Shown: one piece after another, positions 27,220 to 53,856 of the stretch
Numbering within the stretch: position 1 is the stretch's first letter
How the letters are laid out: every line of letters starts with the position of its first letter
DNA from: Verrucomicrobiia bacterium
GTDB lineage: Bacteria > Verrucomicrobiota > Verrucomicrobiia > Limisphaerales > UBA11358
Direction of reading: 5' to 3'
Assembly (NCBI GenBank): GCA_035577265.1
Contig: DATLVR010000119.1
Span: 68,436 to 132,435, forward strand
Length of the DNA stretch: 64,000 bases
Program-made: the position numbers and the translations under genes
The notes under the pieces: model-generated
Database searches by the model: none
Told to the model about the DNA's origin: nothing
Seen by the model: the letters and a program-made list of their open reading frames with translations, nothing else

Positions 27220-30200
27220 TCATGGATAAACGAGACGGAAGAACGCGCTGCCGTTGGCGGAATCAATTGGGACAAAGACCTGATTGGTAAGAGCCGAACC
27301 GGAGACGGTTACCCAATTCGTTCCAAGTCCGGCGGCAATGGAATTAGTCTGCACTTCGAGCCGCCAGCCAAGGTGATCCGTCGGCCAGTTGAATTGCATC
27401 GTGCCGCTGCTCATTCCAAAGCCAAGTTGAAGCGGAGCGGTGGAAACCGGACGCACGCTGGCTTCGACTGAATTGGTGCTTTCGCCAAACGAGTTCGTGG
27501 CCGTGACGACAAAGTAGTAAGCCGTTCCGTTCAGCAATCCGGTATTGGTGCAAGCAAGCCCAGTCAGGTTGGTGGCAACGACAGCATAAGCTCCATTTGA
27601 AATAGTGGAGCGCTTCAAATTATAGCCGGTCGCGCCCGAAGCCGCCGCCCAATTCAACACCGCCTGGCTGTCGCCAGCCGTGGCTGTCAAACCTGTCGGC
27701 GTGGCGGGAGGCACACCCACCAAGAAAGTGAACGCCAATTCGGACAGTTGAAGGTTGCTGGCATCGCCGTTGTTGGTCGTGATGTTCAGCCGGTAATATT
27801 CATAACCGATGGTGTTGCTGATGGGATACTGCTTGGTCAGGAAACGGGTGGCAAACGTTTCTCCCGTGCGTGTGTCCAGCGCGGTCCAGGTCGTTCCATC
27901 GTGCGAGCCTTGGAATTGCCAGCTCTTGGGATCGCGTCCGGGCACATCGTTGGCGCTGGATAAATCGTAGCGAACGACAATCTTTGCGATTCCTCTGAAG
28001 TAATACTGCAACCACGCCGTGGTGCCGGAAGCCAGCCACTTGGTGCCCGTCGAACCATCGAACGCCTTGGCCGCCGTTTCGCTGGGAGCGTTCTCTGAAC
28101 TGGCCGACGCAATGCCAACCGATGGCAGTCCTGAAACTTCCAGGGAGTTTGTGCTCCCCCCGGCCGCATTCGTCGCACTGACCACGTAGTAATAGGTCGT
28201 GTTATTGACCAATCCGGCATTGGTGTAAGTGGTCGTGGTCGGACTGGCGATGGTTGCGTAAGGTCCGCCGCTCACGGTGGCGCGCTTGACGTTATAGCTG
28301 GCCGCGCCACTGGAAGACCTCCAGCTTAAGGTCACCACGCCATCGCCCGACGTAGCGGTCAGCCCGACTGGAATGGTGGGTGGCGGTTGAGGTTGAGTCG
28401 TCGCGCTGGCTTGGATGCTGTTGGTGCTTGGGCCGCCCGAGTTCACGGCCAAGACCACATAGTAATAGGTCGTATTGGGAACCAACCCAGTATCCCAATA
28501 TCCAGTCGCCGCGATGCCCGTGGCGATGTTGGTGTAAGGCCCGCCGTCAACCGTCGCCCGCTTGACATTATAGCTCGTCGCCGCAGCCGGAGCCGTCCAG
28601 CTCAAACTAACCTCGGTGCTGGAGACCGGCGTGGCCGCGAGATCAGTCGGAACAAGCAGCGGGGCGGCATTCAGGGGCAGAATTTCCACCCCGCTGGATT
28701 TTGCATTATCCGATGCGCCATTGGCATATTGAATGACGATCTGTCCGCTGCCATTGGCCGCGATGGTGTATTCCTTGATGGTGGCCTTGTTCTTGGCTCC
28801 GGCATCGGCAAAAATGTCATAGTTCGCCAATACTTGAGTCCCATTGATGAAAACGTTGAAGCGGCGCACGCCGGCAGCATTGTAAAAGATTTCCGCGAAA
28901 TGCAGCCGCACCTTGTAGCTGGTTCCAGCAACCAGATTGGTAAAGGTGTAAGTGTTATTATTCCAGCGTTCGGTCTGATAGACCGCCTGGGGTGCCGGAT
29001 TGGTCACACCGCTCGTGTCAATGGCTGAAGAAGTTGAGCCGGCATTTCCGCCAGAAAAACAAGCGTCGGCCGTGAACGGGCTCGCCGCGCTGCCACCCGA
29101 GTTCACCGAATAAAAAGCCGCCGGCGTAACGCTGATTTGCGTCGAGTCCGGACCCTCTCCCAGCGAGTTCACCATGCTGATGACATAGTAATAGGTCGTG
29201 CCATTGACCAGCCCGGCGTCAATGTAGCCGATCGCTCCCACATTCGTGGCGATGGTCGTGTAAGCTCCGCCGCTTACGACGGCCCGCTTGATATTGTAAC
29301 TGGTCGCGCCAGCAGACGCCGTCCAGCTCAAAGCAACCTGCGCGTTGCCACCATTGGCAGTCAAACCCTTCGGGGCGGCCGGGGCGGCGACCGGCAACAT
29401 GGGAAGAGTTGGCCGGGTTGCGGTCAGGGCCATTTGGCCTTTAAACATCCGGCCACCATCGCCGGTGAGTCTCAGGTAGTAGTCCGACGAGCAGGGCGTA
29501 CCATCTTGATCCAGTGTAAAATAAAGAGCCGGGGTTCCGATCGGACTCATAGAGGCGTTTTCCGCCGTGCAGGCGATCTGGTTTCCCTCGTTGAACTCAT
29601 CATACATGGAAATGTAAATCCCCTGGCAACCAGCCCGTTGCATGTTGTAGAACTGCCGCCACATGAAATTCCCATGCGCCCGCTGTCCCGTGTCGCCGGG
29701 CAAGACACACGGCTGATAATCAATCCCATTGGCGTTGCAATACGCTTGATCCGGCAGGTTCACGTTGTTGTAAAAATTATCCACATCGCCGGTGTTTCCA
29801 ATTCTGCCAACCATCCACGGCGAAATCATATTAAGCGCACTATATGCGCTCAGAAAATTCGTCCTGGAATCGCCATCCTCGGTCCGCCAATGAGTCGGCA
29901 CCCCGCCGATGACGTAGCAGCCCTGACCCTTGAACCAGTTGATCACTTCGCCGCAGGTAATCGCGTCCCAGGGATGATTGCCGTCGTTGAAGCCAAAGCC
30001 CCAGATGCACACAACCGGCTTGCCGTTTTGCGTCGCGTATGCCGGCGACACGGTCAGGGCTGACATTTTATTGGTCCAGTCAGCCTTGATTTCCGCCTGC
30101 ATGGTCGTCCAGCCGCTGACGTCATACATGATGTAAAATTTCCGGCCGTAAGTTTCCGCAGCCTTCCTGACTTTTATCGCCATCACATCACGAGTCGGAC

Positions 30201-30630
30201 CTTCACCTCCAGTTGGATTGAAACGTTGCAGGGCGGCGGTATCAATCCCGTTCTCCGCCATCCACCGGAAATGCGTGTCCACCGTCTGCTGGTCGTAGGA
30301 GGAAAACAGCGTGGCCGGCTGGCCATTGCCAAGATTGGTGAAACCGGTTTGATAGCCTTTGACGAACTGTCGCATGTCGGGCCAGCAGTGGATGCTGTTT
30401 GAGAGCGTGATGGGCGTGGGCGGCTGGGTTCCGCCGCTGTAATGCCACCAAGTGCCGATGGGAGCGCCATCGCCGGTGCACGCAAACCACCCCTGATAAC
30501 CCACGGTCACCTTGCCCACAACGTCGCCCACCGGACTTCCTCCCCGTGCCGGCTGGCCAAAACACGCCAGGGCAACAGCACCCAGAAATAAAATTAACCG
30601 GTGGGAATAATTGTTACGCATAGACTTCAT
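27220..30630 (-). CDS. Multidomain secreted enzyme: GYQGWF hydrolase-like domain, FN3, malectin-like, 2x FN3, F5/8 type C, FN3, C-terminal FFRLVYP module
   Basis: VGYQGWFACTGDGAPIGTWWHY ... ISPWMVGRI ... MYDEFNEGNQ marks the hydrolase-like domain. The malectin-like block is FYSVNSGGSAASPFTADACFSGGNAG...VYQTERW...YKVRLHFAEIFY...RRFNVFINGTQV. The discoidin-like block is AAKAFDGSTGTKWLAS. Ends GSAFFRLVYP. Confidence 0.9.
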   Translation of the reverse strand: MKSMRNNYSHRLILFLGAVALACFGQPARGGSPVGDVVGKVTVGYQGWFACTGDGAPIGTWWHYSGGTQPPTPITLSNSIHCWPDMRQFVKGYQTGFTNLGNGQPATLFSSYDQQTVDTHFRWMAENGIDTAALQRFNPTGGEGPTRDVMAIKVRKAAETYGRKFYIMYDVSGWTTMQAEIKADWTNKMSALTVSPAYATQNGKPVVCIWGFGFNDGNHPWDAITCGEVINWFKGQGCYVIGGVPTHWRTEDGDSRTNFLSAYSALNMISPWMVGRIGNTGDVDNFYNNVNLPDQAYCNANGIDYQPCVLPGDTGQRAHGNFMWRQFYNMQRAGCQGIYISMYDEFNEGNQIACTAENASMSPIGTPALYFTLDQDGTPCSSDYYLRLTGDGGRMFKGQMALTATRPTLPMLPVAAPAAPKGLTANGGNAQVALSWTASAGATSYNIKRAVVSGGAYTTIATNVGAIGYIDAGLVNGTTYYYVISMVNSLGEGPDSTQISVTPAAFYSVNSGGSAASPFTADACFSGGNAGSTSSAIDTSGVTNPAPQAVYQTERWNNNTYTFTNLVAGTSYKVRLHFAEIFYNAAGVRRFNVFINGTQVLANYDIFADAGAKNKATIKEYTIAANGSGQIVIQYANGASDNAKSSGVEILPLNAAPLLVPTDLAATPVSSTEVSLSWTAPAAATSYNVKRATVDGGPYTNIATGIAATGYWDTGLVPNTTYYYVVLAVNSGGPSTNSIQASATTQPQPPPTIPVGLTATSGDGVVTLSWRSSSGAASYNVKRATVSGGPYATIASPTTTTYTNAGLVNNTTYYYVVSATNAAGGSTNSLEVSGLPSVGIASASSENAPSETAAKAFDGSTGTKWLASGTTAWLQYYFRGIAKIVVRYDLSSANDVPGRDPKSWQFQGSHDGTTWTALDTRTGETFATRFLTKQYPISNTIGYEYYRLNITTNNGDASNLQLSELAFTFLVGVPPATPTGLTATAGDSQAVLNWAAASGATGYNLKRSTISNGAYAVVATNLTGLACTNTGLLNGTAYYFVVTATNSFGESTNSVEASVRPVSTAPLQLGFGMSSGTMQFNWPTDHLGWRLEVQTNSIAAGLGTNWVTVSGSALTNQVFVPIDSANGSAFFRLVYP

Positions 30631-35497: not shown

Positions 35498-37813
35498 ATG
35501 ACTATCGAACCCAGAAAATTTGCGCCGGCGAACCAGAAATTCTCCGGCGACAAGCGACACACATTCTTTTTCACCCTGTCCGTGATGGCTGCAGCCCTGA
35601 CAGGCGGGATGCCGGCCTTGCAAGCACAGGACGCTCCGCCGCCCTATAAAAATGCAAGCCTCACCGTGGATGCACGCATTGCGGATCTTGTTGGGCGCAT
35701 GACACTGGAGGAAAAAGCGCGGCAGCTCGACATGTATTTTGGCTGTGAATCAGTTCTGGAAGCGAATCAATTCGTCGCCAGAACCCACGCCAGGCCGGAT
35801 GCCGGTTTCAATATGGCGATGGCGGAGAAAAATCTGGGAACGCTCGGCATCGGCTCGATTCACGATCTTTATCCCCGCGCCAAACTCTACAATCAGGTGC
35901 AAGCCTGGATCATAAAATCCAACCGCCTCGGCATTCCCGCCCTGTTCCTGGAAGAGGGTTTGCACGGTTACATGGATTCTGACGAAACGGTGTTTCCCCA
36001 AAGCGTCAATCTCGCGACGACGTGGAATCCAGAATTGGCGCGGCAAACCGGCGCGGCCATCGCCGCCCAGGCCCGTGCCAACGGCGTGGCCATGATCCTT
36101 GGGCCGGTGCTGGATGTCGCCCGCGATCCGCGCTGGGGACGCGTGGAGGAAAACTTTGGCGAAGACCCGTATCTCACCGGCCAGCTCGGCCTGGCTTACG
36201 TGGAAGGCATGCAGGGTGATTCGCTGAACACGGATCACACCGTCATCGCCGAGCCGAAACATTTTGCCGGCCACGGCAGCCCGGAAGGCGGACTCAACAT
36301 GTCGCCCGTCCACGCCGGCGAACGCGAAGTCCGTTCCATCATGCTGAAGTCGTTTGAACCCGCCATCCGCGAAGGCAAGGTGAATGGCATCATGGTGGCC
36401 TACCACGACCTTGACGGCGTCCCCTGCACGGGCAATCCCTGGCTGCTCAACACTGTTCTCCGCGACGAATGGGGCTTTCAAGGATTTGTCCTGTCCGACC
36501 TCGGCGCGATCCGCCGGCTCTACGACACCCATCACGTCGTGGATTCGCCCACCAACGCGGTCTTGCTCGCGCTCAATTCCGGCGTGGACATGCAGTTCTA
36601 CGATTTCGATCACGACATTTTTCAAGACGCCATCGTCAACGGCGTTAAAAATGGCAAGCTCAGCGAAGCCACCTTGAATCAGGCGGTCGCACGCGTGCTG
36701 CGCGTCAAGTTTATGCTCGGATTATTTGATCGTCCGTTCGTGGATGAAAACCTCGACGCCACCGTCCGGCACTCACCGCAACAAGCCGGCCTCGCGCTCG
36801 AATCCGCGCGCCAGTCCATGTGCCTGCTCAAAAACGAAGGCCATCTTCTGCCTTTGGGAAAAAATCTCAAACGCATCGCCGTCATCGGACCGAACGCCAG
36901 CCTTGCCCGGCTGGGCGACTATTCCGAAGGTGCGCAGGAAGGCTCCAAGGAAGGAATGCTCGAACAAATCAAGCAGCGGGTTAAATCGAACACCGAGGTG
37001 ACTTTCGCCGATGGCGGGAATATCAAAGAGGCCGTCGCACTGGCCAGAGCAGCCGACGTCGTGATTCTTGGCCTCGGTGAATGGCAGAAAATTTCCGGCG
37101 AAGGTTTTGATCGCTCCGACTTGAATCTTCCCGGCAAACAGGAGGACCTGCTGGAAGCCGTCGCTGCCACCGGCAAGCCGGTGGTGCTGGTCTTGCAGAA
37201 CGGCCGGCCGCTGACCATCACCTGGGCGGCCAAACACGTTCCGGCCATCTTGGAAGCGTGGTATCCCGGTGAATCCGGCGGACGCGCCATCGCTGAAACT
37301 TTATTGGGCGACAACAACCCGGCGGGCCGGTTGCCGATCACCTTCCCGCGTAGCGTCGGACAAATCCCGATTTTCTACAATCATTTCCCCTCCAAGAAAG
37401 ATTCCTACATCGAAGGCGACAGCTCCCCGCTGTTTGTCTTCGGGCACGGATTGAGTTACACGACCTTCAAATACGATGGCCTCAAAGTCACCGCGCCTTC
37501 GGCCCGCAGCACCGAAGATGTCCTGATCACCTGCAAAATCACCAACACCGGCAAACGTGAAGGTGATGAAGTGGCGCAGCTTTACGTGCATCAGGAAACC
37601 GCGAGCGTGGCCACGCCGGTCAAAGCCCTCAAGGGGTTTTCAAGGATTCATCTGAAGCCTGCAGAGTCGAAGGTCGTCACGTTTCAATTGAAGCAGTCAG
37701 ACCTTGCGGTTTGGAATGCGAATCAGAAATGGCAGGTGGAACCGGGCAAATACACGGTCATGATGGGCGGCGATTCATCCGGCGGTCTATCGGCTAAGTT
37801 CGCTTTGGAATGA
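35498..37813 (+). CDS. GH3-family beta-glucosidase (BglX-like)
   Basis: EEGLHGY, KHFAGHGSPEGG and GFVLSDLGAI (the nucleophile Asp context), then a C-terminal Fn3-like region with VAQLYV. Divergent from the giant-enzyme operon. Confidence 0.9.
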   Translation: MTIEPRKFAPANQKFSGDKRHTFFFTLSVMAAALTGGMPALQAQDAPPPYKNASLTVDARIADLVGRMTLEEKARQLDMYFGCESVLEANQFVARTHARPDAGFNMAMAEKNLGTLGIGSIHDLYPRAKLYNQVQAWIIKSNRLGIPALFLEEGLHGYMDSDETVFPQSVNLATTWNPELARQTGAAIAAQARANGVAMILGPVLDVARDPRWGRVEENFGEDPYLTGQLGLAYVEGMQGDSLNTDHTVIAEPKHFAGHGSPEGGLNMSPVHAGEREVRSIMLKSFEPAIREGKVNGIMVAYHDLDGVPCTGNPWLLNTVLRDEWGFQGFVLSDLGAIRRLYDTHHVVDSPTNAVLLALNSGVDMQFYDFDHDIFQDAIVNGVKNGKLSEATLNQAVARVLRVKFMLGLFDRPFVDENLDATVRHSPQQAGLALESARQSMCLLKNEGHLLPLGKNLKRIAVIGPNASLARLGDYSEGAQEGSKEGMLEQIKQRVKSNTEVTFADGGNIKEAVALARAADVVILGLGEWQKISGEGFDRSDLNLPGKQEDLLEAVAATGKPVVLVLQNGRPLTITWAAKHVPAILEAWYPGESGGRAIAETLLGDNNPAGRLPITFPRSVGQIPIFYNHFPSKKDSYIEGDSSPLFVFGHGLSYTTFKYDGLKVTAPSARSTEDVLITCKITNTGKREGDEVAQLYVHQETASVATPVKALKGFSRIHLKPAESKVVTFQLKQSDLAVWNANQKWQVEPGKYTVMMGGDSSGGLSAKFALE

Positions 37814-37863: not shown

Positions 37864-38115
37864 TCATTGTAGAAAATGAAATCCGCCGACAGAATATCCA
37901 ACGCCCGCAACCAAAAGTCCGAATATAGAAATGAGCATCGGCTTCCATGTTTTCTTAAAATTGAGGACAAGGTAAATCAGGTCAATAAATGGAATAAACA
38001 AGCATCCAAGGAACCAAGCCAGACTGTGGCGAAAAACGATAGCCAGGAACATCACGTTACCAGCGATCCCAATTATCATACCCAGCCAGAACAATATGTA
38101 ACCAACTGTTGTCAT
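37864..38115 (-). CDS. Small membrane protein (83 aa, 3 predicted TM segments)
   Basis: Hydrophobic runs ILFWLGMIIGIAGNVMFLAIVF, FLGCLFIPFIDLIYLVL and MLISIFGLLVAGVGY. The ATG lies 12 nt after the GTTAGGC core of repeat c0. Confidence 0.7.
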   Translation of the reverse strand: MTTVGYILFWLGMIIGIAGNVMFLAIVFRHSLAWFLGCLFIPFIDLIYLVLNFKKTWKPMLISIFGLLVAGVGYSVGGFHFLQ

Positions 38116-38125
38116 ACTCGGTGAT

Positions 38126-38218
38126 GCCTAACGTCCCGGCTCAGGCACGCCGGGCCGATGATAATCGATTGTCAATCGAGACGCGATCTCGGCATTGCCT
38201 GCAGCCGGTTTGTTGGCT
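38126..38218 (-). repeat. attC-like structured repeat c0, overlapping the GNAT gene 3' end
   Basis: Minus strand: AGCCAAC-aaaccg-GCTGCAGGCAATGCC...GGCGTGCCTGAGCC-gggac-GTTAGGC. The arms pair over 13 bp with one mismatch plus two unpaired bases, at the same positions as in c1. Confidence 0.5.
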
Positions 38219-38730
38219 GGCAGAACAAGCCATTCGTCCCGCAAACAACCCATGATCACAATGTCATCCTCAGCGCCATCCAGAAACCGCGCGCACCGCT
38301 TTCGGCCCTCAATCACAAAGCCCTCTCGCTCGTAAAGTCCAACAGCGATCTTGTTTGAAGCAAACACTTCCAATTCGACGCGCTTTAAGGCTTTGGCAAA
38401 GACCCAGCTCAATGCTTCACGAACAAGTCGGCGTCCTAGACCCTGGCCACGAAAAGACGGCAGCAGCCCCATGCCCAAGCGGCCCACATGGCGCATCCCC
38501 TCAAAAGGAACTGGGGTCACATCGCACCACCCTACAATCCTGGCGTCGGCGACCACTACAATCTGAATCCCGCCGCTGTCCGAGAGTGAGGCTATGAACG
38601 CACGAGTTTGCTCTGCGCTGAACCCGGAGGTATTCCCCAAATACCGCCGCTCTCTAGAAACAGCATCGACACAAGCAGAGACAGCGTCGGCATCCTCCGG
38701 AGTACTGGAACGCATTGTAATCATCGTCAT
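38128..38730 (-). CDS. GNAT-family N-acetyltransferase
   Basis: The RGQGLGRRLVREAL motif (Q/RxxGxG/A acetyl-CoA loop) and overall GNAT pattern (LEVFASNKIAVGLYEREGF). The start was reset to MTMITMRSST (ATG at 38730) because the track start at 38772 reads through repeat c1. Confidence 0.85.
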   Translation of the reverse strand: MTMITMRSSTPEDADAVSACVDAVSRERRYLGNTSGFSAEQTRAFIASLSDSGGIQIVVVADARIVGWCDVTPVPFEGMRHVGRLGMGLLPSFRGQGLGRRLVREALSWVFAKALKRVELEVFASNKIAVGLYEREGFVIEGRKRCARFLDGAEDDIVIMGCLRDEWLVLPANKPAAGNAEIASRLTIDYHRPGVPEPGR

Positions 38731-38748
38731 GGCAGAAAATGCTCCCAC

Positions 38749-38844
38749 AGCCAACGTCCAGAGCTCAGGCACGCGGGACCAAGAGCTGTGAACCGCGAAG
38801 CGGAACTGAGAGCGGCATCCCGCGTTGCCTGCAGCGATTTAGGC
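38749..38844 (-). repeat. attC-like structured repeat c1
   Basis: Minus strand: GCCTAAA-tc-GCTGCAGGCAACGCGGGA...TCCCGCGTGCCTGAGC-tctggac-GTTGGCT. The stem is 16 bp with two unpaired bases on one arm. The centre CAGTTCCGCTTCGCGGTT is shared with c2 and c3. Confidence 0.5.
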
Positions 38845-38944
38845 ATCATCATGCTGGCATATTCTCTTTCTTCGTTTGGTAATCCACTGTGCGACAAAAA
38901 ACAGAGCGACTGCAATAAAAATCTCTGCCGGAATCGTGCGCGCT

Positions 38945-39047
38945 GCGAAAACAAGTGCAGTCGAACGATCCGCAAGGGACAACAATGTCAACCGCGAAGG
39001 CGGAACTGAAAGCGCTCCCCGGCGTTGGCTGCAGCGCCTGGTTAGTC
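38945..39047 (-). repeat. attC-like structured repeat c2 (3' arm decayed)
   Basis: Minus strand starts GACTAAC-caggc-GCTGCAGCCAACGCCGGGGA. The centre CAGTTCCGCCTTCGCGGTT is conserved. The distal arm is only partly complementary and no clean core heptamer remains. Confidence 0.4.
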
Positions 39048-39057
39048 AAAAAATACG

Positions 39058-39552
39058 TCACCGCTTCTTGCTTGCAGCAACGAGTGCTTTTACCAGCTCA
39101 TCCGCAACTTCTTGAGTCCATCTGGCCGGATCATATTGATACCAATACTGGGTTGATTTAATCCCCGCAGCAGTCCAAAGAATGCCGCCTGTCTTCCGAT
39201 CAATAGCCTTGAGATCAATTCCAACGGTCGTATATCCCCTCGTAAATGAACCTTGGTAATAAGCCGTCACAATTCCTGCTATTTCAATGTCTCCTTTTTC
39301 TTGAACGACATGCTTTCCATACCTAACGAATGCTGACTCAACCGCCGCGCGGACAATGATTGCTGCGTCCGGATACACTGCTTTTTCACTTTTTAAATTG
39401 GCATCTTGAAACGCCGCGAAAAAATATGTAGCCTGGTTGTCTTCTGTCGTTGGCGTTCGTGTGGCTAATGCAACATATGGGTTCTGAGTTGCGCAACCTG
39501 ATATAACAACAGCAATGGCCACAAACGCCAGTAATGGTATCAATTTTTTCAT
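39058..39552 (-). CDS. Lipoprotein (164 aa)
   Basis: MKKLIPLLAFVAIAVVISGCATQ carries a lipobox (ISGC). The start was reset from the track's 39591. Repeat c2 begins 7 nt after the stop. Confidence 0.8.
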   Translation of the reverse strand: MKKLIPLLAFVAIAVVISGCATQNPYVALATRTPTTEDNQATYFFAAFQDANLKSEKAVYPDAAIIVRAAVESAFVRYGKHVVQEKGDIEIAGIVTAYYQGSFTRGYTTVGIDLKAIDRKTGGILWTAAGIKSTQYWYQYDPARWTQEVADELVKALVAASKKR

Positions 39553-39628
39553 GGTAGATTTTGCCTGATAACAACAGCTGAGCCATCCCAAATCTTTTTA
39601 GGTGCATCGACCATTAACTGGTTTCTGC

Positions 39629-39844
39629 TCATTGATTCATATTGTCAAAAAGATTATCTTCAAAAGCTGCACGTTCTGCCTCCTGATGACTGACACCCCG
39701 ATTTTCGTAATACTCTACAGCTTCGTGGTGCTCCACACCACTCAGTGGATCAAATGAAAAATTAGGGCCAATGGCGCACCCGCCTGCAAGAAGGCATAGA
39801 ATGCCGAACGAGCAACTCAATACAAGGTGTCGTTGAAACTTCAT
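39629..39844 (-). CDS. Small lipoprotein (71 aa)
   Basis: MKFQRHLVLSCSFGILCLLAGGCAIG carries a lipobox (AGGC). Confidence 0.65.
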   Translation of the reverse strand: MKFQRHLVLSCSFGILCLLAGGCAIGPNFSFDPLSGVEHHEAVEYYENRGVSHQEAERAAFEDNLFDNMNQ

Positions 39845-39949
39845 ATCTGCCGGTTTTGACGCCAGACCTGGCAGTCGTATTCATCGGCGTCACAAGCGTC
39901 AACGCCGACCGATTCGGAATACTTAAAATAGTCATAAATATTTACCGTC

Positions 39950-40042
39950 GCCTAACGAACAAAGCTGAACCACGCCGGACCAAAAACCGTGGACCGCGCA
40001 GCGGAACTGTCAGCGCCAACCCGCGTCGGCGACTGGTCAGGC
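39950..40042 (-). repeat. attC-like structured repeat c3 (arms diverged)
   Basis: Minus strand: GCCTGAC-cagtcgccgacgcggg...CAGTTCCGCTGCGCGGTC...ggtccggcgtggttcagc-tttgttc-GTTAGGC. It aligns with c1 end to end, but arm complementarity is weak. Confidence 0.4.
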
Positions 40043-40468
40043 ACTTTGTGTATATCGAAATGGGCGCGGGCGGAATTTCAACCAGCTGCCGATAACCACT
40101 AAGCCGAAAAGCGTGTAGCACACGATAAAGACCCAAGACGGAGCCTCATAATACAGCTGTTTCTGCAACCAGTGCGCGATGAATGTGCCCCCATAAGTTG
40201 AGTCGCCAGCCTTTTCGCGCAGATGCATCTCCAAAGTGGTAAGGGGGCAGATGACGCCGAGCCAAGCTTGGACCACCACCAAACTGATACCGGCAAGATG
40301 CACCGCGCGAAACCACGGATTGCAAACCCACCGCCAACCGGCGAATCCACCGCAAAGTATTGCGAGTAAACCAACGGTTATAAACGAGACAAAGCTGACA
40401 TGTGTTATCAACACGAGATCAGCAAACGTGCGATATGCGCTGGCGCTCATTCTTGCCCAGTGTCTCAT
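40037..40468 (-). CDS. DUF2784-family membrane protein
   Basis: LITHVSFVSFITVGLLAI ... WLGVICPLTTLEMHLR matches the DUF2784 'CPLT..E..LR' pattern. The start is uncertain: 40528 (track), 40468 or 40450. Confidence 0.75.
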   Translation of the reverse strand: MRHWARMSASAYRTFADLVLITHVSFVSFITVGLLAILCGGFAGWRWVCNPWFRAVHLAGISLVVVQAWLGVICPLTTLEMHLREKAGDSTYGGTFIAHWLQKQLYYEAPSWVFIVCYTLFGLVVIGSWLKFRPRPFRYTQSA

Positions 40469-40584
40469 GTAATTTGTAGCGGTTCCAGCCGGAAATGAGA
40501 GCTCCGCCCTTGCACGTGGACCGGCCAAAAGTACAGTTTTACCCTCAACCTGAAGAGCCTAGACTTGCTGCCGAACCGATTACC

Positions 40585-42626: not shown

Positions 42627-42713
42627 TTTGTTTCTCTGTGCCTTTGCGTCTCTGCGGCAAAATAAAACCGTTGAACCCAGAAACCTTCACGCTCATCACC
42701 GGTGCGGCGGGCG
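42625..42713 (+). repeat. Copy A of an ~88-nt imperfect direct repeat (relic of the lpxB 5' end and leader)
   Basis: GATTTGTTTCTCTGTGCCTTTGCGTCTCTGCGGC...GAACCCAGAAACCTTCACGCTCATCACCGGTGCGGCGGGCGG aligns with 43114-43199. The lpxB ATG is ACG here. Confidence 0.6.
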
Positions 42714-42750
42714 GCTTTACTAATCGGCAGAACGGGTGTAAAACATAGCC

Positions 42751-43008
42751 ATGAGCATCACGCTCGACCTTCCGGACAACATCCACGAGGCGTTGCACGT
42801 CACGCCCGCCGAGACCGAACCGCGCCTCAAGCTGGAACTGGCCGTGGCGCTTTACGCGCAACACGCCTTAAGCCAGGGCAAAGCTGCCGAACTGGCGGGC
42901 ATGGACTGGTTTGATTTCAACGACGTGCCGGCAGCGCGTGGCATACCGATGCACTACGGTCAAAAGGAACTCGACGAAGACCTCGCGTATGCCCGCAGTC
43001 GTCAGTGA
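42751..43008 (+). CDS. UPF0175-family antitoxin
   Basis: ETEPRLKLELAVALYAQHALSQGKAAELAGMDWFDFNDVPAARGIPMHYGQKELDEDL matches the UPF0175 pattern. It overlaps the downstream PIN-like ORF by 20 nt. Confidence 0.8.
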   Translation: MSITLDLPDNIHEALHVTPAETEPRLKLELAVALYAQHALSQGKAAELAGMDWFDFNDVPAARGIPMHYGQKELDEDLAYARSRQ

Positions 43009-43159
43009 CACTTCGGTCATCAATTATCTCGCCGCCCTCGGTCAGGCGGAACTTTTCACAGCCAAAGAATTTAACGCCAAGACGCCAAGATGCAGAGACG
43101 CCAAGATGAAAATGATTTGCTTTGCGCCTTTGCGTCTTTGCATTGAAATGATTGAGTGA
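42989..43159 (+). pseudogene. Truncated DUF3368/PIN-like toxin
   Basis: MPAVVSDTSVINYLAALGQAELF matches the DUF3368 N-terminus (VVSDTSPLI.L...G.L.LL). After ~22 codons the frame runs into a palindromic element (43076-43141) and stops. Full-length family members are ~150 aa. Confidence 0.55.
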
Positions 43160-43199
43160 AACCGAAAACCTTCATGCTCATCGCCGGGGAGGCGAGCGG
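43114..43199 (+). repeat. Copy B of the ~88-nt direct repeat (functional lpxB leader and first codons)
   Basis: See copy A. Copy B contains the lpxB start codons. Confidence 0.6.
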
Positions 43200-44412
43200 G
43201 GATTTGCTCGCGGCGGAACTGGTTTCCGCGCTGCGCGAGAAGCTTCCATCCTCCATCCTTGATTCTCCATCCTCGCCGGCCTTCTTCGGCGCGGGCGGCG
43301 CGAAGATGTCCGCCGCCGGCGTGGATCTGGCCTTTGACCTGACGCAGCACTCGGTCATCGGCCTCACAGACGTGCTGAAAAATATTTTGAAGTTTCGCCG
43401 GCTATTCAATGAACTGCTCGCGCTGGCGATTGAGCGCAAGCCGGACGTGGTCGTCGGCGTGGATTATGGTGGGTTCAACCTGCGCTTCGGCCAGGCGGTC
43501 AAAGCCTATGTCCGCGACAATCCGTTTGTGAACTGGAATCCGAAAATCGTGCAGTTCGTCTCGCCGCAGGTCTGGGCGTCGCGCCCGGGTCGCGCCAGGA
43601 AGCTGGCCCGCGATTACGACCTGCTCCTGAGCATTTTCCCGTTCGAGAAGGCCTGGTATGCCCAACGCGTCCCCCAATTGCGCGTGGAATTTGTCGGGCA
43701 TCCCATGATCGGGAGATTTGCGCATGACGATTTACTTTCGACGCGACGCGCATCTGGAGTTCGTAGCAGCCGAGGTGACGAGGCTCAAATCCGAAATCCG
43801 AAATCCGAAATCCGAAATCAGTCAGAGCCTCCTCACGTCGTCTCCTGCGAATCGAAAATTTTATTGCTACCCGGCAGCCGTAAGAGTGAATTGCAGCGGC
43901 ATTTGCCGGTGATGCTCGACGCGCTGAAGGCGATCCGTGAAAAACTACCGACGGCAAGGGCGAAAATGGTTTTGCCGAATCCGTCGCTGGTGCAGCTCGC
44001 GAAATCACTCGGGGCGACCCTGGAAATCCAAATCGGCGAGCTGCCTTGGGCCCTGGCGGAGTCGGATGTCGCCATCGCCTCGACGGGCACGGTGACGATG
44101 GAGTGCGCATTCTTCGGCGTGCCGACGGTGACGCTCTACAAAACCTCGTGGCTCACCTATCAGATCGCCCGGCGCATCATCACCGTGAAATCGCTCACGA
44201 TGCCAAACTTGCTGGCGGGCGAGACGGTTTATCCGGAATTTGTCCAGAAAGACGCCACACCGGAAAATCTTTCGCGCGCCGTGCTGGAATTGTTGCAGGA
44301 CGAAGCGCGCCGGACTGAAATCAAAGCTCAACTAAAAAAAATCATTGCCTCGCTCGGCGAACCCGGCGCGGCGGGACGTGCGGCGGAGGCGATTTTACAT
44401 TTGTTCAAATGA
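43156..44412 (+). CDS. lpxB: Lipid-A-disaccharide synthase
   Basis: MLIAGEASGDLLAAELVSALRE, VGVDYGGFNL, FVSPQVWASRPGR, FPFE, FVGHPM, LLPGSRKSEL and ASTGTVTMECAFFGVPTV are LpxB hallmarks. The start is GTG at 43156 or ATG at 43174. There is a ~25-aa extra segment between FVGHPM and LLPGSR. Confidence 0.9.
   Translation: MKPKTFMLIAGEASGDLLAAELVSALREKLPSSILDSPSSPAFFGAGGAKMSAAGVDLAFDLTQHSVIGLTDVLKNILKFRRLFNELLALAIERKPDVVVGVDYGGFNLRFGQAVKAYVRDNPFVNWNPKIVQFVSPQVWASRPGRARKLARDYDLLLSIFPFEKAWYAQRVPQLRVEFVGHPMIGRFAHDDLLSTRRASGVRSSRGDEAQIRNPKSEIRNQSEPPHVVSCESKILLLPGSRKSELQRHLPVMLDALKAIREKLPTARAKMVLPNPSLVQLAKSLGATLEIQIGELPWALAESDVAIASTGTVTMECAFFGVPTVTLYKTSWLTYQIARRIITVKSLTMPNLLAGETVYPEFVQKDATPENLSRAVLELLQDEARRTEIKAQLKKIIASLGEPGAAGRAAEAILHLFK
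43770..43840. repeat. Hairpin plus AAATCCG heptamer array inserted in frame in lpxB
   Basis: The stems CCGAGGTGACGAGGCTC (43770-43786) and GAGCCTCCTCACGTCG (43825-43840) are 14/16 complementary. They flank four perfect AAATCCG units (43787-43814) plus a partial unit. The translation is ...RGDEAQIRNPKSEIRNQSEPPHVV... Confidence 0.8.
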
Positions 44413-53729: not shown

Positions 53730-53852
53730 AACATTCAACATTCAACATTCAACATTCAACATTCAACATTCAACATCGAACGTCCAAGTGAACGCGGTGC
53801 CAAACGGTCTTTCCATTGGGTGTTGGGCGTTGAATGTTGAATGTTCGATGTT
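53730..53852. repeat. Heptamer-array inverted repeat (E3)
   Basis: AACATTC x6 (53730-53771) plus AACATCG, a 53-nt GC-rich spacer, then GAATGTT x2 plus CGATGTT (53832-53852) in inverted orientation. It fills the gap between the ATP-grasp and alpha-E genes. Confidence 0.8.
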
Positions 53853-53856
53853 GTTT

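Follow-up and report, generated by a model that had tools for sequence, protein, structure and literature searches.

The locus lies in a 64-kb stretch of DNA from a Verrucomicrobiia bacterium, hereafter the window, and the ORFs around it encode a GNAT acetyltransferase, DUF2784 and DUF7670 proteins, a UPF0175 antitoxin and LpxB. A preliminary description of this DNA, prepared from the letters alone, proposed an integron-style cassette array in which attC-like repeats follow small ORFs within a patch more AT-rich than its flanks. This compositional difference is real, with a GC content of 0.47–0.51 at 39–42 kb compared with 0.54–0.60 in the flanking regions. The proposed cargo included a GNAT protein, an assignment that the Pfam match bears out (Table 1), and decayed toxin-antitoxin modules were thought to lie alongside. 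Of the latter, only the UPF0175 antitoxin was confirmed by Pfam; the HicA/HicB-like remnants at 42.3–42.6 kb found no Pfam support.

Table 1. Coordinates of the array units, repeats and neighbouring features in the window.
Feature	Position	Strand	Basis or remark
Last array unit	37864-38131	-	Begins TTAGGC; small membrane-protein ORF 37864-38115
attC c0	38126-38218	-	Site of the GNAT cassette; covariance model R1, geometry scan, fold
GNAT acetyltransferase gene cassette, complete	38132-38754	-	Pfam Acetyltransf_1, 4.9e-17
attC c1	38749-38844	-	R1 alignment and fold
attC remnant c2	38958-39049	-	R1, gaps in 5' arm
Two-ORF unit between c3 and c2	39050-39955	-	Begins TTAGGC; ORF list
attC remnant c3	39950-40042	-	R1, 6-nt gap
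DUF2784 membrane-protein ORF	40037-40450	-	Pfam DUF2784, 2.1e-28; c3 directly after
UPF0175 antitoxin	42751-43008		Pfam

The DUF2784 protein (137 aa in the gene call of locus L001) belongs to the first unit that can be recognised in the array, and neither an attC nor an attI was found upstream of it. The two-ORF unit encodes a lipoprotein-like product of 71 aa (39629-39844) and a second one of 164–177 aa (39058-39591); neither matched a Pfam family. The stretch between c2 and c1 contains no ORF, as had been described. On the minus strand the GNAT cassette begins with TTGGCT and ends with c0 plus a G, and its ORF (38128-38730; 38128-38715 in the gene call) runs through c0 to a stop codon formed by the TAG within the R' box GTTAGGC. 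The last unit encodes a small membrane protein of 83 aa (71 aa in the gene call). No covariance-model match was found 3' of this ORF and the unit thus lacks an attC of its own, which identifies it as a truncated cassette.

The repeats were located with a covariance model (R1) trained on 60 copies of the repeat from public sequences, with the window sequence kept out, and run with filters off over both strands of the 64 kb. This search returned exactly four matches, with nothing else below E = 0.01 on either strand: c1 at 38748-38846 (88.5 bits, E 2e-23), c3 at 39948-40044 (62.5 bits, E 1e-15), c0 at 38124-38220 (54.1 bits, E 3e-13) and c2 at 38958-39049 (31.7 bits, E 1e-6). The positions given in the preliminary description were thereby recovered for all four repeats, except that c2 starts nearer 38958 than had been indicated. 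A scan of the window against Rfam gave no matches; attC is not an Rfam family and this result is hence uninformative. Judged by sequence and predicted structure, the four repeats are attC sites of a family that is common in soil and peat Verrucomicrobia.

Among these, c0 is the sole site with complete canonical geometry, and a sequence-agnostic scan of the window for attC geometry returned this site only, on the expected strand. Its top strand is the minus strand of the window and its folding, bottom strand the plus strand. The boxes R' (GCCTAAC, 38126-38132) and R'' (GTTGGCT, 38212-38218) enclose a stem in which 38139-38153 pairs with 38189-38205, separated from the boxes by spacers of 6 and 6 nt. 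T38195 and C38202 are extrahelical, a single C.A mismatch (A38194) lies beside the extrahelical T, and the fold has an energy of -24.6 kcal/mol (z = -2.6). In c1, the R' box is AGCCAAC (38749-38755), and the stem with its extrahelical T38825 and C38832 is intact. The R'' box of c1 is short by 3 nt (GTT), reading GATT-TAGGC against the family sequence GATTTGTTAGGC at a gap in the R1 alignment. The GCCTAAA that had been taken for a variant inverse core is therefore the family R'' with this deletion, GATTT[GTT]AGGC. The inverted repeats reported for c0 and c1 do fold into long imperfect hairpins, and the two unpaired bases noted on the same arm of both copies correspond to the extrahelical pairs named above.

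The hairpin is kept by c0 and c1 among the four sites; folding of c2 and c3 gave no stable hairpin. In c2, the arm on the R'' side and the central part are undamaged, with GTTAGTC at 39041-39047, and most of the R'/L' arm is deleted (12 nt missing); GTCGAAC at 38960-38966 may be a surviving, variant R' box. Both boxes are present in c3 (R' GCCTAAC, 39950-39956; R'' GTCAGGC), from which 6 nt in the TGGCTC/TGCCTG block of the 3' stem arm have been lost. The decay of the c2 and c3 arms had thus been recognised correctly, and to it must be added the damage in c1. All four sites have some defect: c0 carries its mismatch, the R'' of c1 lacks GTT, and c2 and c3 are unfoldable.

The published attC layout, from which our geometry rule is taken, consists of an R' box (RYYYAAC) and an R'' box (GTTRRRY), unpaired spacers of 5–6 nt, and, on the arm facing the AAC triplet, two extrahelical bases (positions 16 and 23) that flank a 6-bp stem; position 16 is usually G, and the T at 23/24 is conserved (PMC5027507). 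A loose scan, accepting any RYYYAAC...GTTRRRY with low folding energy, gave 1052 candidates, mostly in GC-rich coding sequence, and was replaced by a strict geometry scan. In public genomes we found 640 copies of the family at 213 loci. On the bottom strand the family consensus reads GCCTAAC, 7 nt, GCT-CAGGCA-CGCGGG ... CCCGCG-T-TGCCTG-C-AGC, GATTT, GTTAGGC, with a main stem of 15 bp and extrahelical bases at 16 and 23, 6 bp apart, and it fits the published layout, on the plus (bottom) strand in the window. Exact GCCTAAC occurs in 400 of 593 R' boxes and exact GTTAGGC in 344 of 550 R'' boxes. The strict scan was passed by 443 of the 480 full-length public copies (92%). All 443 have T at position 23 and 428 (97%) have C at position 16, so that the position is right and the base unusual relative to the published G. 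The spacers measure 7 nt on the R' side and 5 nt on the R'' side in 395 of these copies, the former being 1 nt beyond the cited range, and the site lengths of 93–103 nt lie inside the 57–141 bp range of attC sites.

Structure, beyond sequence, is conserved in the family. In the family alignment, 96% of the cells show pairing, and both partners vary in 11 pairs; within the main helix this applies to 9 of the 15 pairs. The covariation score was 0.238, compared with 0.085 for shuffled alignments (0 of 500 reached the observed value) and 0.03–0.05 for slid partners, and is to be read with the caveat that the subfamilies are related and the events therefore fewer than the cells. For a comparison with a single known site we used what we take to be the sequence of attC(aadA7), which belongs to a mobile-integron cassette. 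The bottom-strand order is the same in both (RYYYAAC, spacer, 3 bp, 6 bp and stem, 5-nt spacer, GTTRRRY), as are the extrahelical bases at 16 and 23 and the T at 23. The family differs in its length of ~93–103 nt as against 60 nt, in its structured variable terminal region, and in having C rather than G at position 16. In forming a lineage-specific attC family of ~100 nt, conserved in sequence as well as structure, it resembles the VCR of the Vibrio cholerae superintegron.

The arrangement of the copies is that of cassettes. No public locus contains copies on both strands, the median spacing between copies is 490 bp, and in 365 of 411 intervals the top strand carries the longest ORF. R'' is a perfect match to the R' on the far side of its cassette in 346 of 391 cases (88%), and to its own adjacent R' in 266 of 522 (51%), which is the random level (random mean 3.15 of 4 positions). 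In the informative subset the corresponding counts are 86 of 120 across the cassette and 8 of 114 for the adjacent box. Such cassette-wise pairing of R'' and R' arises only from crossover at G|TT. The same bookkeeping had been proposed for two units of the window, and it holds: read along the ORF strand, the R'' of c0 is AGCCAAC and complements the c1 R' GTTGGCT at every position (7/7), and for the two-lipoprotein unit the c2 R'' agrees with the c3 R' at 6/7 positions. The GNAT cassette recurs at two further contigs (L040 and L100) with 92–94% identity. In each case the similarity runs as far as the two R' boxes, GCCTAA|C and AGCCAA|C, and gives way to unrelated neighbours beyond them, a pattern showing that the cassette as a whole has been transferred from one context to another. 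When the cassette proteins of the window were compared by tblastn with the retrieved public loci, the GNAT cassette alone matched, and the lipoprotein, DUF2784 and 83-aa units gave no match; the evidence of mobility thus concerns the GNAT cassette.

The preliminary description had left it to be seen whether any intI exists in the lineage; we found that intI adjoins the same attC family in other Verrucomicrobia genomes. At least 13 loci carry IntI homologues, full or contig-truncated, that are 43–54% identical to IntI1, and the three tested on TIGR02249 scored 417–465 bits (cutoff 265). In these loci intI is always adjacent to the array and always divergent from it. One locus (L124) has a co-oriented array of at least 12 sites in 8 kb, and in MFD05502.bin.2.46 arrays of the family occupy three contigs, one of them with intI. 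This linkage and the crossover signature lend indirect support to the prediction that an integron integrase binds and recombines the family sites as folded single strands.

Taken together, geometry, covariation, co-orientation, intI linkage, R''/R' pairing and the three contexts of the GNAT cassette support the reading of this locus as integron cassettes. It had been noted that the window is without an integrase, and we found neither an IntI gene nor a recognisable pseudogene in the 64 kb; a tblastn search with IntI1 as query, covering the full window, gave a best E of 0.27, with nothing between 26 and 48 kb. The window does not contain a complete integron, which would comprise an intI with its IntI-specific domain, an attI beside it and a Pc upstream of the cassettes. 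The region 37864-40450 is very probably a short chromosomal cluster of integron gene cassettes without an adjacent integron integrase, that is, a CALIN, in a member of the Verrucomicrobiota, probably of Limisphaerales (subdivision 3) type. Both CALINs and verrucomicrobial integrons have been on record since 2016 (PMC4889954); the element type is already known, and this array is one more example that changes no concept. A CALIN as defined with IntegronFinder (Cury et al, 2016) comprises two or more attC sites that share a strand, are spaced by less than 4 kb and have no intI nearby. Here a stretch of 1.9 kb holds four family matches, all on the same strand, with no intI within 4 kb, or within 10 kb under the relaxed limit. 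As in other CALINs, the cargo is small, mostly of unknown function and free of antibiotic-resistance genes, and the attC sites within the cluster are alike. The array differs in that three of its four sites are damaged, so that strict model-based calling might count only 2–3, and in its uncultured Verrucomicrobiota host, the published set being dominated by Proteobacteria. Its public relatives resemble sedentary chromosomal integrons, being long, co-oriented and beside a divergent intI, whereas the window array is a partly decayed 2.6-kb piece without the platform (intI, attI and Pc). The C at position 16 in 97% of family sites also departs from sedentary chromosomal integrons, whose published sites usually have G.

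On this reading, the hairpin formed by the bottom strand, plus in the window, would be the structure recognised by an IntI tyrosine recombinase, and crossover at G|TT in the R' box would insert or excise each ORF together with its attC. The array would have been built by an IntI, either one acting in cis and subsequently lost or moved away through rearrangement, or one working in trans, and the array now appears to be decaying. Given that c0 is the one structurally complete site, at best the GNAT cassette boundary may still be recombinogenic, provided that an IntI is encoded elsewhere in the genome. Without a platform Pc promoter, the cassettes would presumably depend on their own or on read-through transcription. 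Genomes with GH3 orthologues 82–84% identical are not syntenic downstream of GH3, where they have a response regulator and a histidine kinase, and they contain no family attC. Since gene order after GH3 is not shared, no cassette gain or loss is visible at the window locus.

This rearranged junction downstream of the GH3 gene would also fit a history in which the array is a piece split off a complete sedentary chromosomal integron of the same genome, with the resident IntI still reshuffling its cassettes in trans. Single MAGs of the lineage, such as the one with family arrays on three contigs, do hold several separate arrays, and Cury et al, who reported that about half of CALINs lie in replicons with an IntI gene, proposed such an origin for them (PMC4889954). 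However, three of the four window sites are damaged, compared with 92% of public full-length copies intact, which suggests relaxed selection or no recent recombination. We regard this history as possible though somewhat unlikely.

The cluster might instead derive not from an earlier platform but from IntI-mediated insertion into a secondary, non-attI ('attG') site followed by attC x attC insertions. That CALINs can form in this way has been documented (PMC4889954; Loot et al, 2024, as cited in PMC13323075), and an intI remnant, like attI and attC, is absent upstream of the DUF2784 unit. Nevertheless, the distal end, where the c0 R' box GTTAGGC is followed by the small ORF, resembles a normal cassette start rather than a chromosomal hybrid, and upstream of DUF2784 no G|TT hybrid junction that would match the c3 R'' can be recognised. 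This origin seems unlikely.

That the repeats are REP/BIME-like or terminator hairpins with a superficial likeness to attC is extremely improbable: like REP/BIME palindromes they are short, GC-rich, imperfect hairpins directly 3' of ORFs, they have no Rfam family and 78 public loci (many on short contigs) contain a single copy, but REP/BIME palindromes occur in both orientations and genome-wide, without a link to IntI or cassette-wise pairing of end boxes, and the family contrasts with them in each of these respects. The scatter in two orientations that the preliminary description had named as the mark of a REP family is absent (one strand in 213 of 213 loci), genuine intI stands in the canonical divergent layout, and R''/R' complementarity tracks cassette rather than hairpin boundaries. 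In addition, the extrahelical bases at 16 and 23 are conserved, and the GNAT unit has its limits precisely at G|TT in each of its three contexts. None of these five features is expected under a REP or terminator model, which we rejected on the first three of them.

Reading the locus as a CALIN has consequences for annotation: the patch is to be treated as horizontally acquired cassette DNA and not as core genome, and the GNAT gene as a mobile cassette with at least three contexts. A CALIN in an uncultured soil Verrucomicrobium could be recognised and verified from sequence alone, and one attC family is common to hundreds of cassettes, with integrases, in MAGs of peat, soil and freshwater Verrucomicrobia. 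These little-studied bacteria hold a sizeable cassette pool, whose cargo consists mostly of small membrane proteins, lipoproteins and acetyltransferases. As a tentative proposal, which we consider rather doubtful, the Limisphaerales-type attC family, with its invariant T23, C16 in place of G and several arrays per genome, may represent a lineage-specific integron system whose integrases are co-adapted to the C-type extrahelical base. The clusters without intI would then be a live, trans-mobilised reservoir in soil and peat Verrucomicrobia rather than dead remnants.

The four attC-like repeats (c0–c3; attC being the recombination site of integrons) lie where the preliminary description had placed them, each 3' of a minus-strand ORF, and the repeat region is AT-richer than its flanks, as judged from window composition. 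As also described, the unit between c2 and c1 contains no ORF, and no integron integrase (IntI) was identified in the 64-kb window (tblastn with IntI1, best E-value only 0.27). The last unit of the array has no attC, and neither attI nor attC was found upstream of the DUF2784 unit in the window. The window sequence is identical to part of a 139-kb ENA metagenome contig; a JGI and a Logan assembly contain the same strain.

Features of the array patch and its flanks (window coordinates)
Feature	Position	Strand	Remark
GH3 beta-glucosidase gene	35498-37813		flank of array patch
Membrane protein, 83 aa	37864-38115	minus	ORF beside repeats
c0	38126-38218		54.1 bits
GNAT acetyltransferase	38128-38730	minus	Pfam 4.9e-17
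c1	38749-38844		88.5 bits
c2	38958-39049		31.7 bits
Lipoprotein-like ORF	39058-39591	minus	ORF beside repeats
Lipoprotein-like ORF	39629-39844	minus	ORF beside repeats
c3	39950-40042		62.5 bits
DUF2784 protein	40037-40450	minus	ORF beside repeats
lpxB	43156-44412		other flank of array patch
Bits are scores on a covariance model built from 60 public copies, window sequence excluded.

Two search patterns, built on the arms and on the centre that the repeats share, each matched more than 118 stretches in public collections. Among those listed, the genome-collection matches are mostly Verrucomicrobiae, Limisphaerales or subdivision 3 metagenome-assembled genomes (MAGs) from peat, soil and lakes. 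A profile search of 241 fetched loci identified 640 copies in 213 loci, with a median start-to-start spacing of 490 bp (quartiles 403–645), and the longest ORF occupies the strand that puts the repeat at its 3' end in 365 of the 411 intervals between repeats. A REP or terminator family scattered genome-wide, the alternative to an attC family, is argued against by the strand distribution, as none of the 213 repeat-bearing fetched loci carries copies on both strands. In one Verrucomicrobiae MAG, MFD05502.bin.2.46, three contigs (loci L124, L134+L154 and L225) together hold no fewer than three dense, separate arrays of the family, with 10–12 or more sites per 8 kb and, within the stretches fetched, intI beside only one of them; having several arrays in a genome may be typical of this lineage. 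Family attC sites were also present in contigs of MAGs labelled as other phyla (loci L195, L144, L178, L205, L217, L226, L235 and others): several, one of them with intI, are in MAGs labelled “uncultured Bifidobacteriaceae” from binchicken co-assemblies, and a few are in MAGs labelled delta-proteobacteria, Acidobacteria or Thermoplasmata. These odd-phylum contigs are probably mis-binned or mislabelled, rather than the result of cross-phylum spread.

The family consensus on the window plus strand reads GCCTAAC, 7 nt, GCT-CAGGCA-CGCGGG ... CCCGCG-T-TGCCTG-C-AGC, GATTT, GTTAGGC. It matches the published bottom-strand layout of attC, in which the terminal boxes R' (RYYYAAC) and R'' (GTTRRRY) are accompanied by a spacer of 5–6 nt and by extrahelical bases at position 16 and at a conserved T at 23 or 24, separated by a 6-bp stem (PMC5027507). 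On the window plus strand the extrahelical bases of the family are in the 3' arm, which makes plus the bottom strand and minus the cassette top strand, in agreement with the ORF orientation. In an alignment of 60 public copies, with the window sequence left out, 96% of cells were paired and both sides changed in 9 of the 15 main-helix pairs (for example, CAGGCA/TGCCTG versus GAGCCA/TGGCTC and CGCGGG/CCCGCG versus CCGCCG/CGGCGG). The covariation score was 0.238, versus 0.085 in shuffled alignments (0 of 500 reaching 0.238) and at most 0.05 with slid partners. A scan for canonical attC geometry only, with family sequence unused, was passed by 443 of 480 full-length public copies and identified 123 further same-strand sites in the fetched loci. 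Position 23 is a T in all 443 passing copies and position 16 a C in 428 of them, whereas published attC sites usually carry a G at position 16.

Because integron cassettes are cut at the G|TT of R', the expected partner of R'' is the TTRRRY that opens its own cassette, and not the R' to which it is physically joined. When the four variable box positions were compared in public arrays, 346 of 391 cross-cassette pairs matched perfectly (mean 3.80), versus 266 of 522 pairs of adjacent boxes (mean 3.25; random mean 3.15 +/- 0.05); where R'' departs from consensus, 86 of 120 match across the cassette and 8 of 114 match the adjacent box. The public arrays carry the IntI crossover signature, and the window follows the same rule, as the preliminary description had proposed for two units. 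In the GNAT unit, c0 R'' (GTTGGCT, plus strand) and c1 R' (AGCCAAC), which are 530 nt apart, are perfectly complementary, and c0 R'' agrees with the R' of its own site (GCCTAAC) at only 4 of the 7 positions; in the two-lipoprotein unit, c2 R'' and c3 R' agree at 6 of 7.

Window positions 38125–38756 match two unrelated metagenome contigs (L040 and L100) at 92–94% identity. These alignments begin at the c0 R' box (GCCTAA|C; GACTAA|C in L040) and end at AGCCAA|C, and beyond both boundaries the sequence is unrelated; in L040 the upstream neighbour of the GNAT unit resembles a different attC. Because homology stops at the R' boxes and the flanks are unrelated, the segment 38132–38754 (TTGGCT ... 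GNAT ... c0 ... G) is a discrete mobile cassette, present in three contexts. The GNAT ORF is stop-free before the attC and terminates at a TAG inside the c0 R' core GTTAGGC, so that the last ~30 GNAT residues are encoded within c0 (window 38128–38218); tblastn with this tail gave matches to many attC sites of the c0 type at other loci.

A search for intI in the lineage located it beside family arrays: at least 13 fetched loci contain full or contig-truncated IntI homologues (43–54% identity, tblastn with IntI1), every one next to an array and reading outward from it, the arrangement canonical for integrons. Three of these integrases scored 417–465 bits on the NCBIfam model TIGR02249 “integron integrase” (cutoff 265).

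The window sites themselves are damaged to different degrees. Long imperfect hairpins are formed by c0 and c1, in which an inverted repeat had been described, but not by c2 and c3, for which decayed arms had been noted. In the model alignments c0 is complete except for a C.A mismatch beside the extrahelical T; missing are 3 nt of R'' in c1 (GATT-TAGGC), a 6-nt stem block on the R'' arm in c3 and 12 nt of the R' arm in c2. One of the four sites passed the geometry test, versus 92% of full-length copies in public arrays; in the geometry-only scan of both window strands c0 was the single site, versus 0.3 expected from shuffles. Given the damaged sites, the last unit without attC, the c2–c1 unit without ORF and the lack of attI or attC ahead of the DUF2784 unit, the window cluster is a decaying fragment of a cassette array. 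Beyond c0–c3, the covariance-model search of the 64 kb gave no match with E < 0.01. One weak match at 27244–27339 (16.4 bits, E 0.039) falls within the long ORF 27220–30630 on the minus strand, in a stretch where the fetched locus L001 has no gene call; it lacks R boxes and is most likely due to chance. Among public copies, a 3-nt loss like that of c1 recurs (GACTT-TAGGC, GCGTT-TAGGC), and in recurrent variants (e.g., locus L131) the R'' end is swapped for the same foreign sequence (…AGCGAGAGGCTGTGTGAAAA…, …GATTTGATACTCCC…, …GACTTCCATGAGAAGG). The repeated occurrence of the same replacement and the same loss suggests that specific junction or deletion events recur at the family R''.

Other features were observed elsewhere in the window. 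About 110 nt comprising the lpxB upstream region and first codons are duplicated at ~80% identity (42630–42740 and 43117–43225), bracketing a UPF0175 antitoxin gene (42751–43008) and a 56-aa ORF with no Pfam family, which may be a truncated partner of the antitoxin. This duplication resembles a scar left at the lpxB 5' end by insertion or recombination, distinct from the cassette array. Within the lpxB reading frame, between its two Pfam LpxB matches, lies a perfect tandem repeat (AAATCCG x 4.7, 43787–43819); because the unit is not a multiple of 3, gain or loss of a copy would shift the frame. A long perfect hairpin at 53730–53856, between two minus-strand ORFs, consists of an AACATTC x 6.7 repeat, readable as ATTCAAC, and of GTTGAAT repeats that form its inverted copy, and may be a terminator.

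In genomes with GH3 orthologues (82–84% identical), a response regulator and a histidine kinase follow GH3, and no family attC was found downstream of it. The array junction is thus confined to the lineage of the window. [quoted passage not shown] The proposed integron-style cassette array is borne out by attC geometry, covariation, the intI-linked family, the crossover signature and the moved GNAT cassette, and the element corresponds to the definition of a CALIN. Verrucomicrobia were already listed among integron-bearing phyla by Cury et al. (PMC4889954). Two details are unusual, the C at position 16 and how abundant a single attC family is in Limisphaerales-type MAGs, and both leave the category of the element unchanged.
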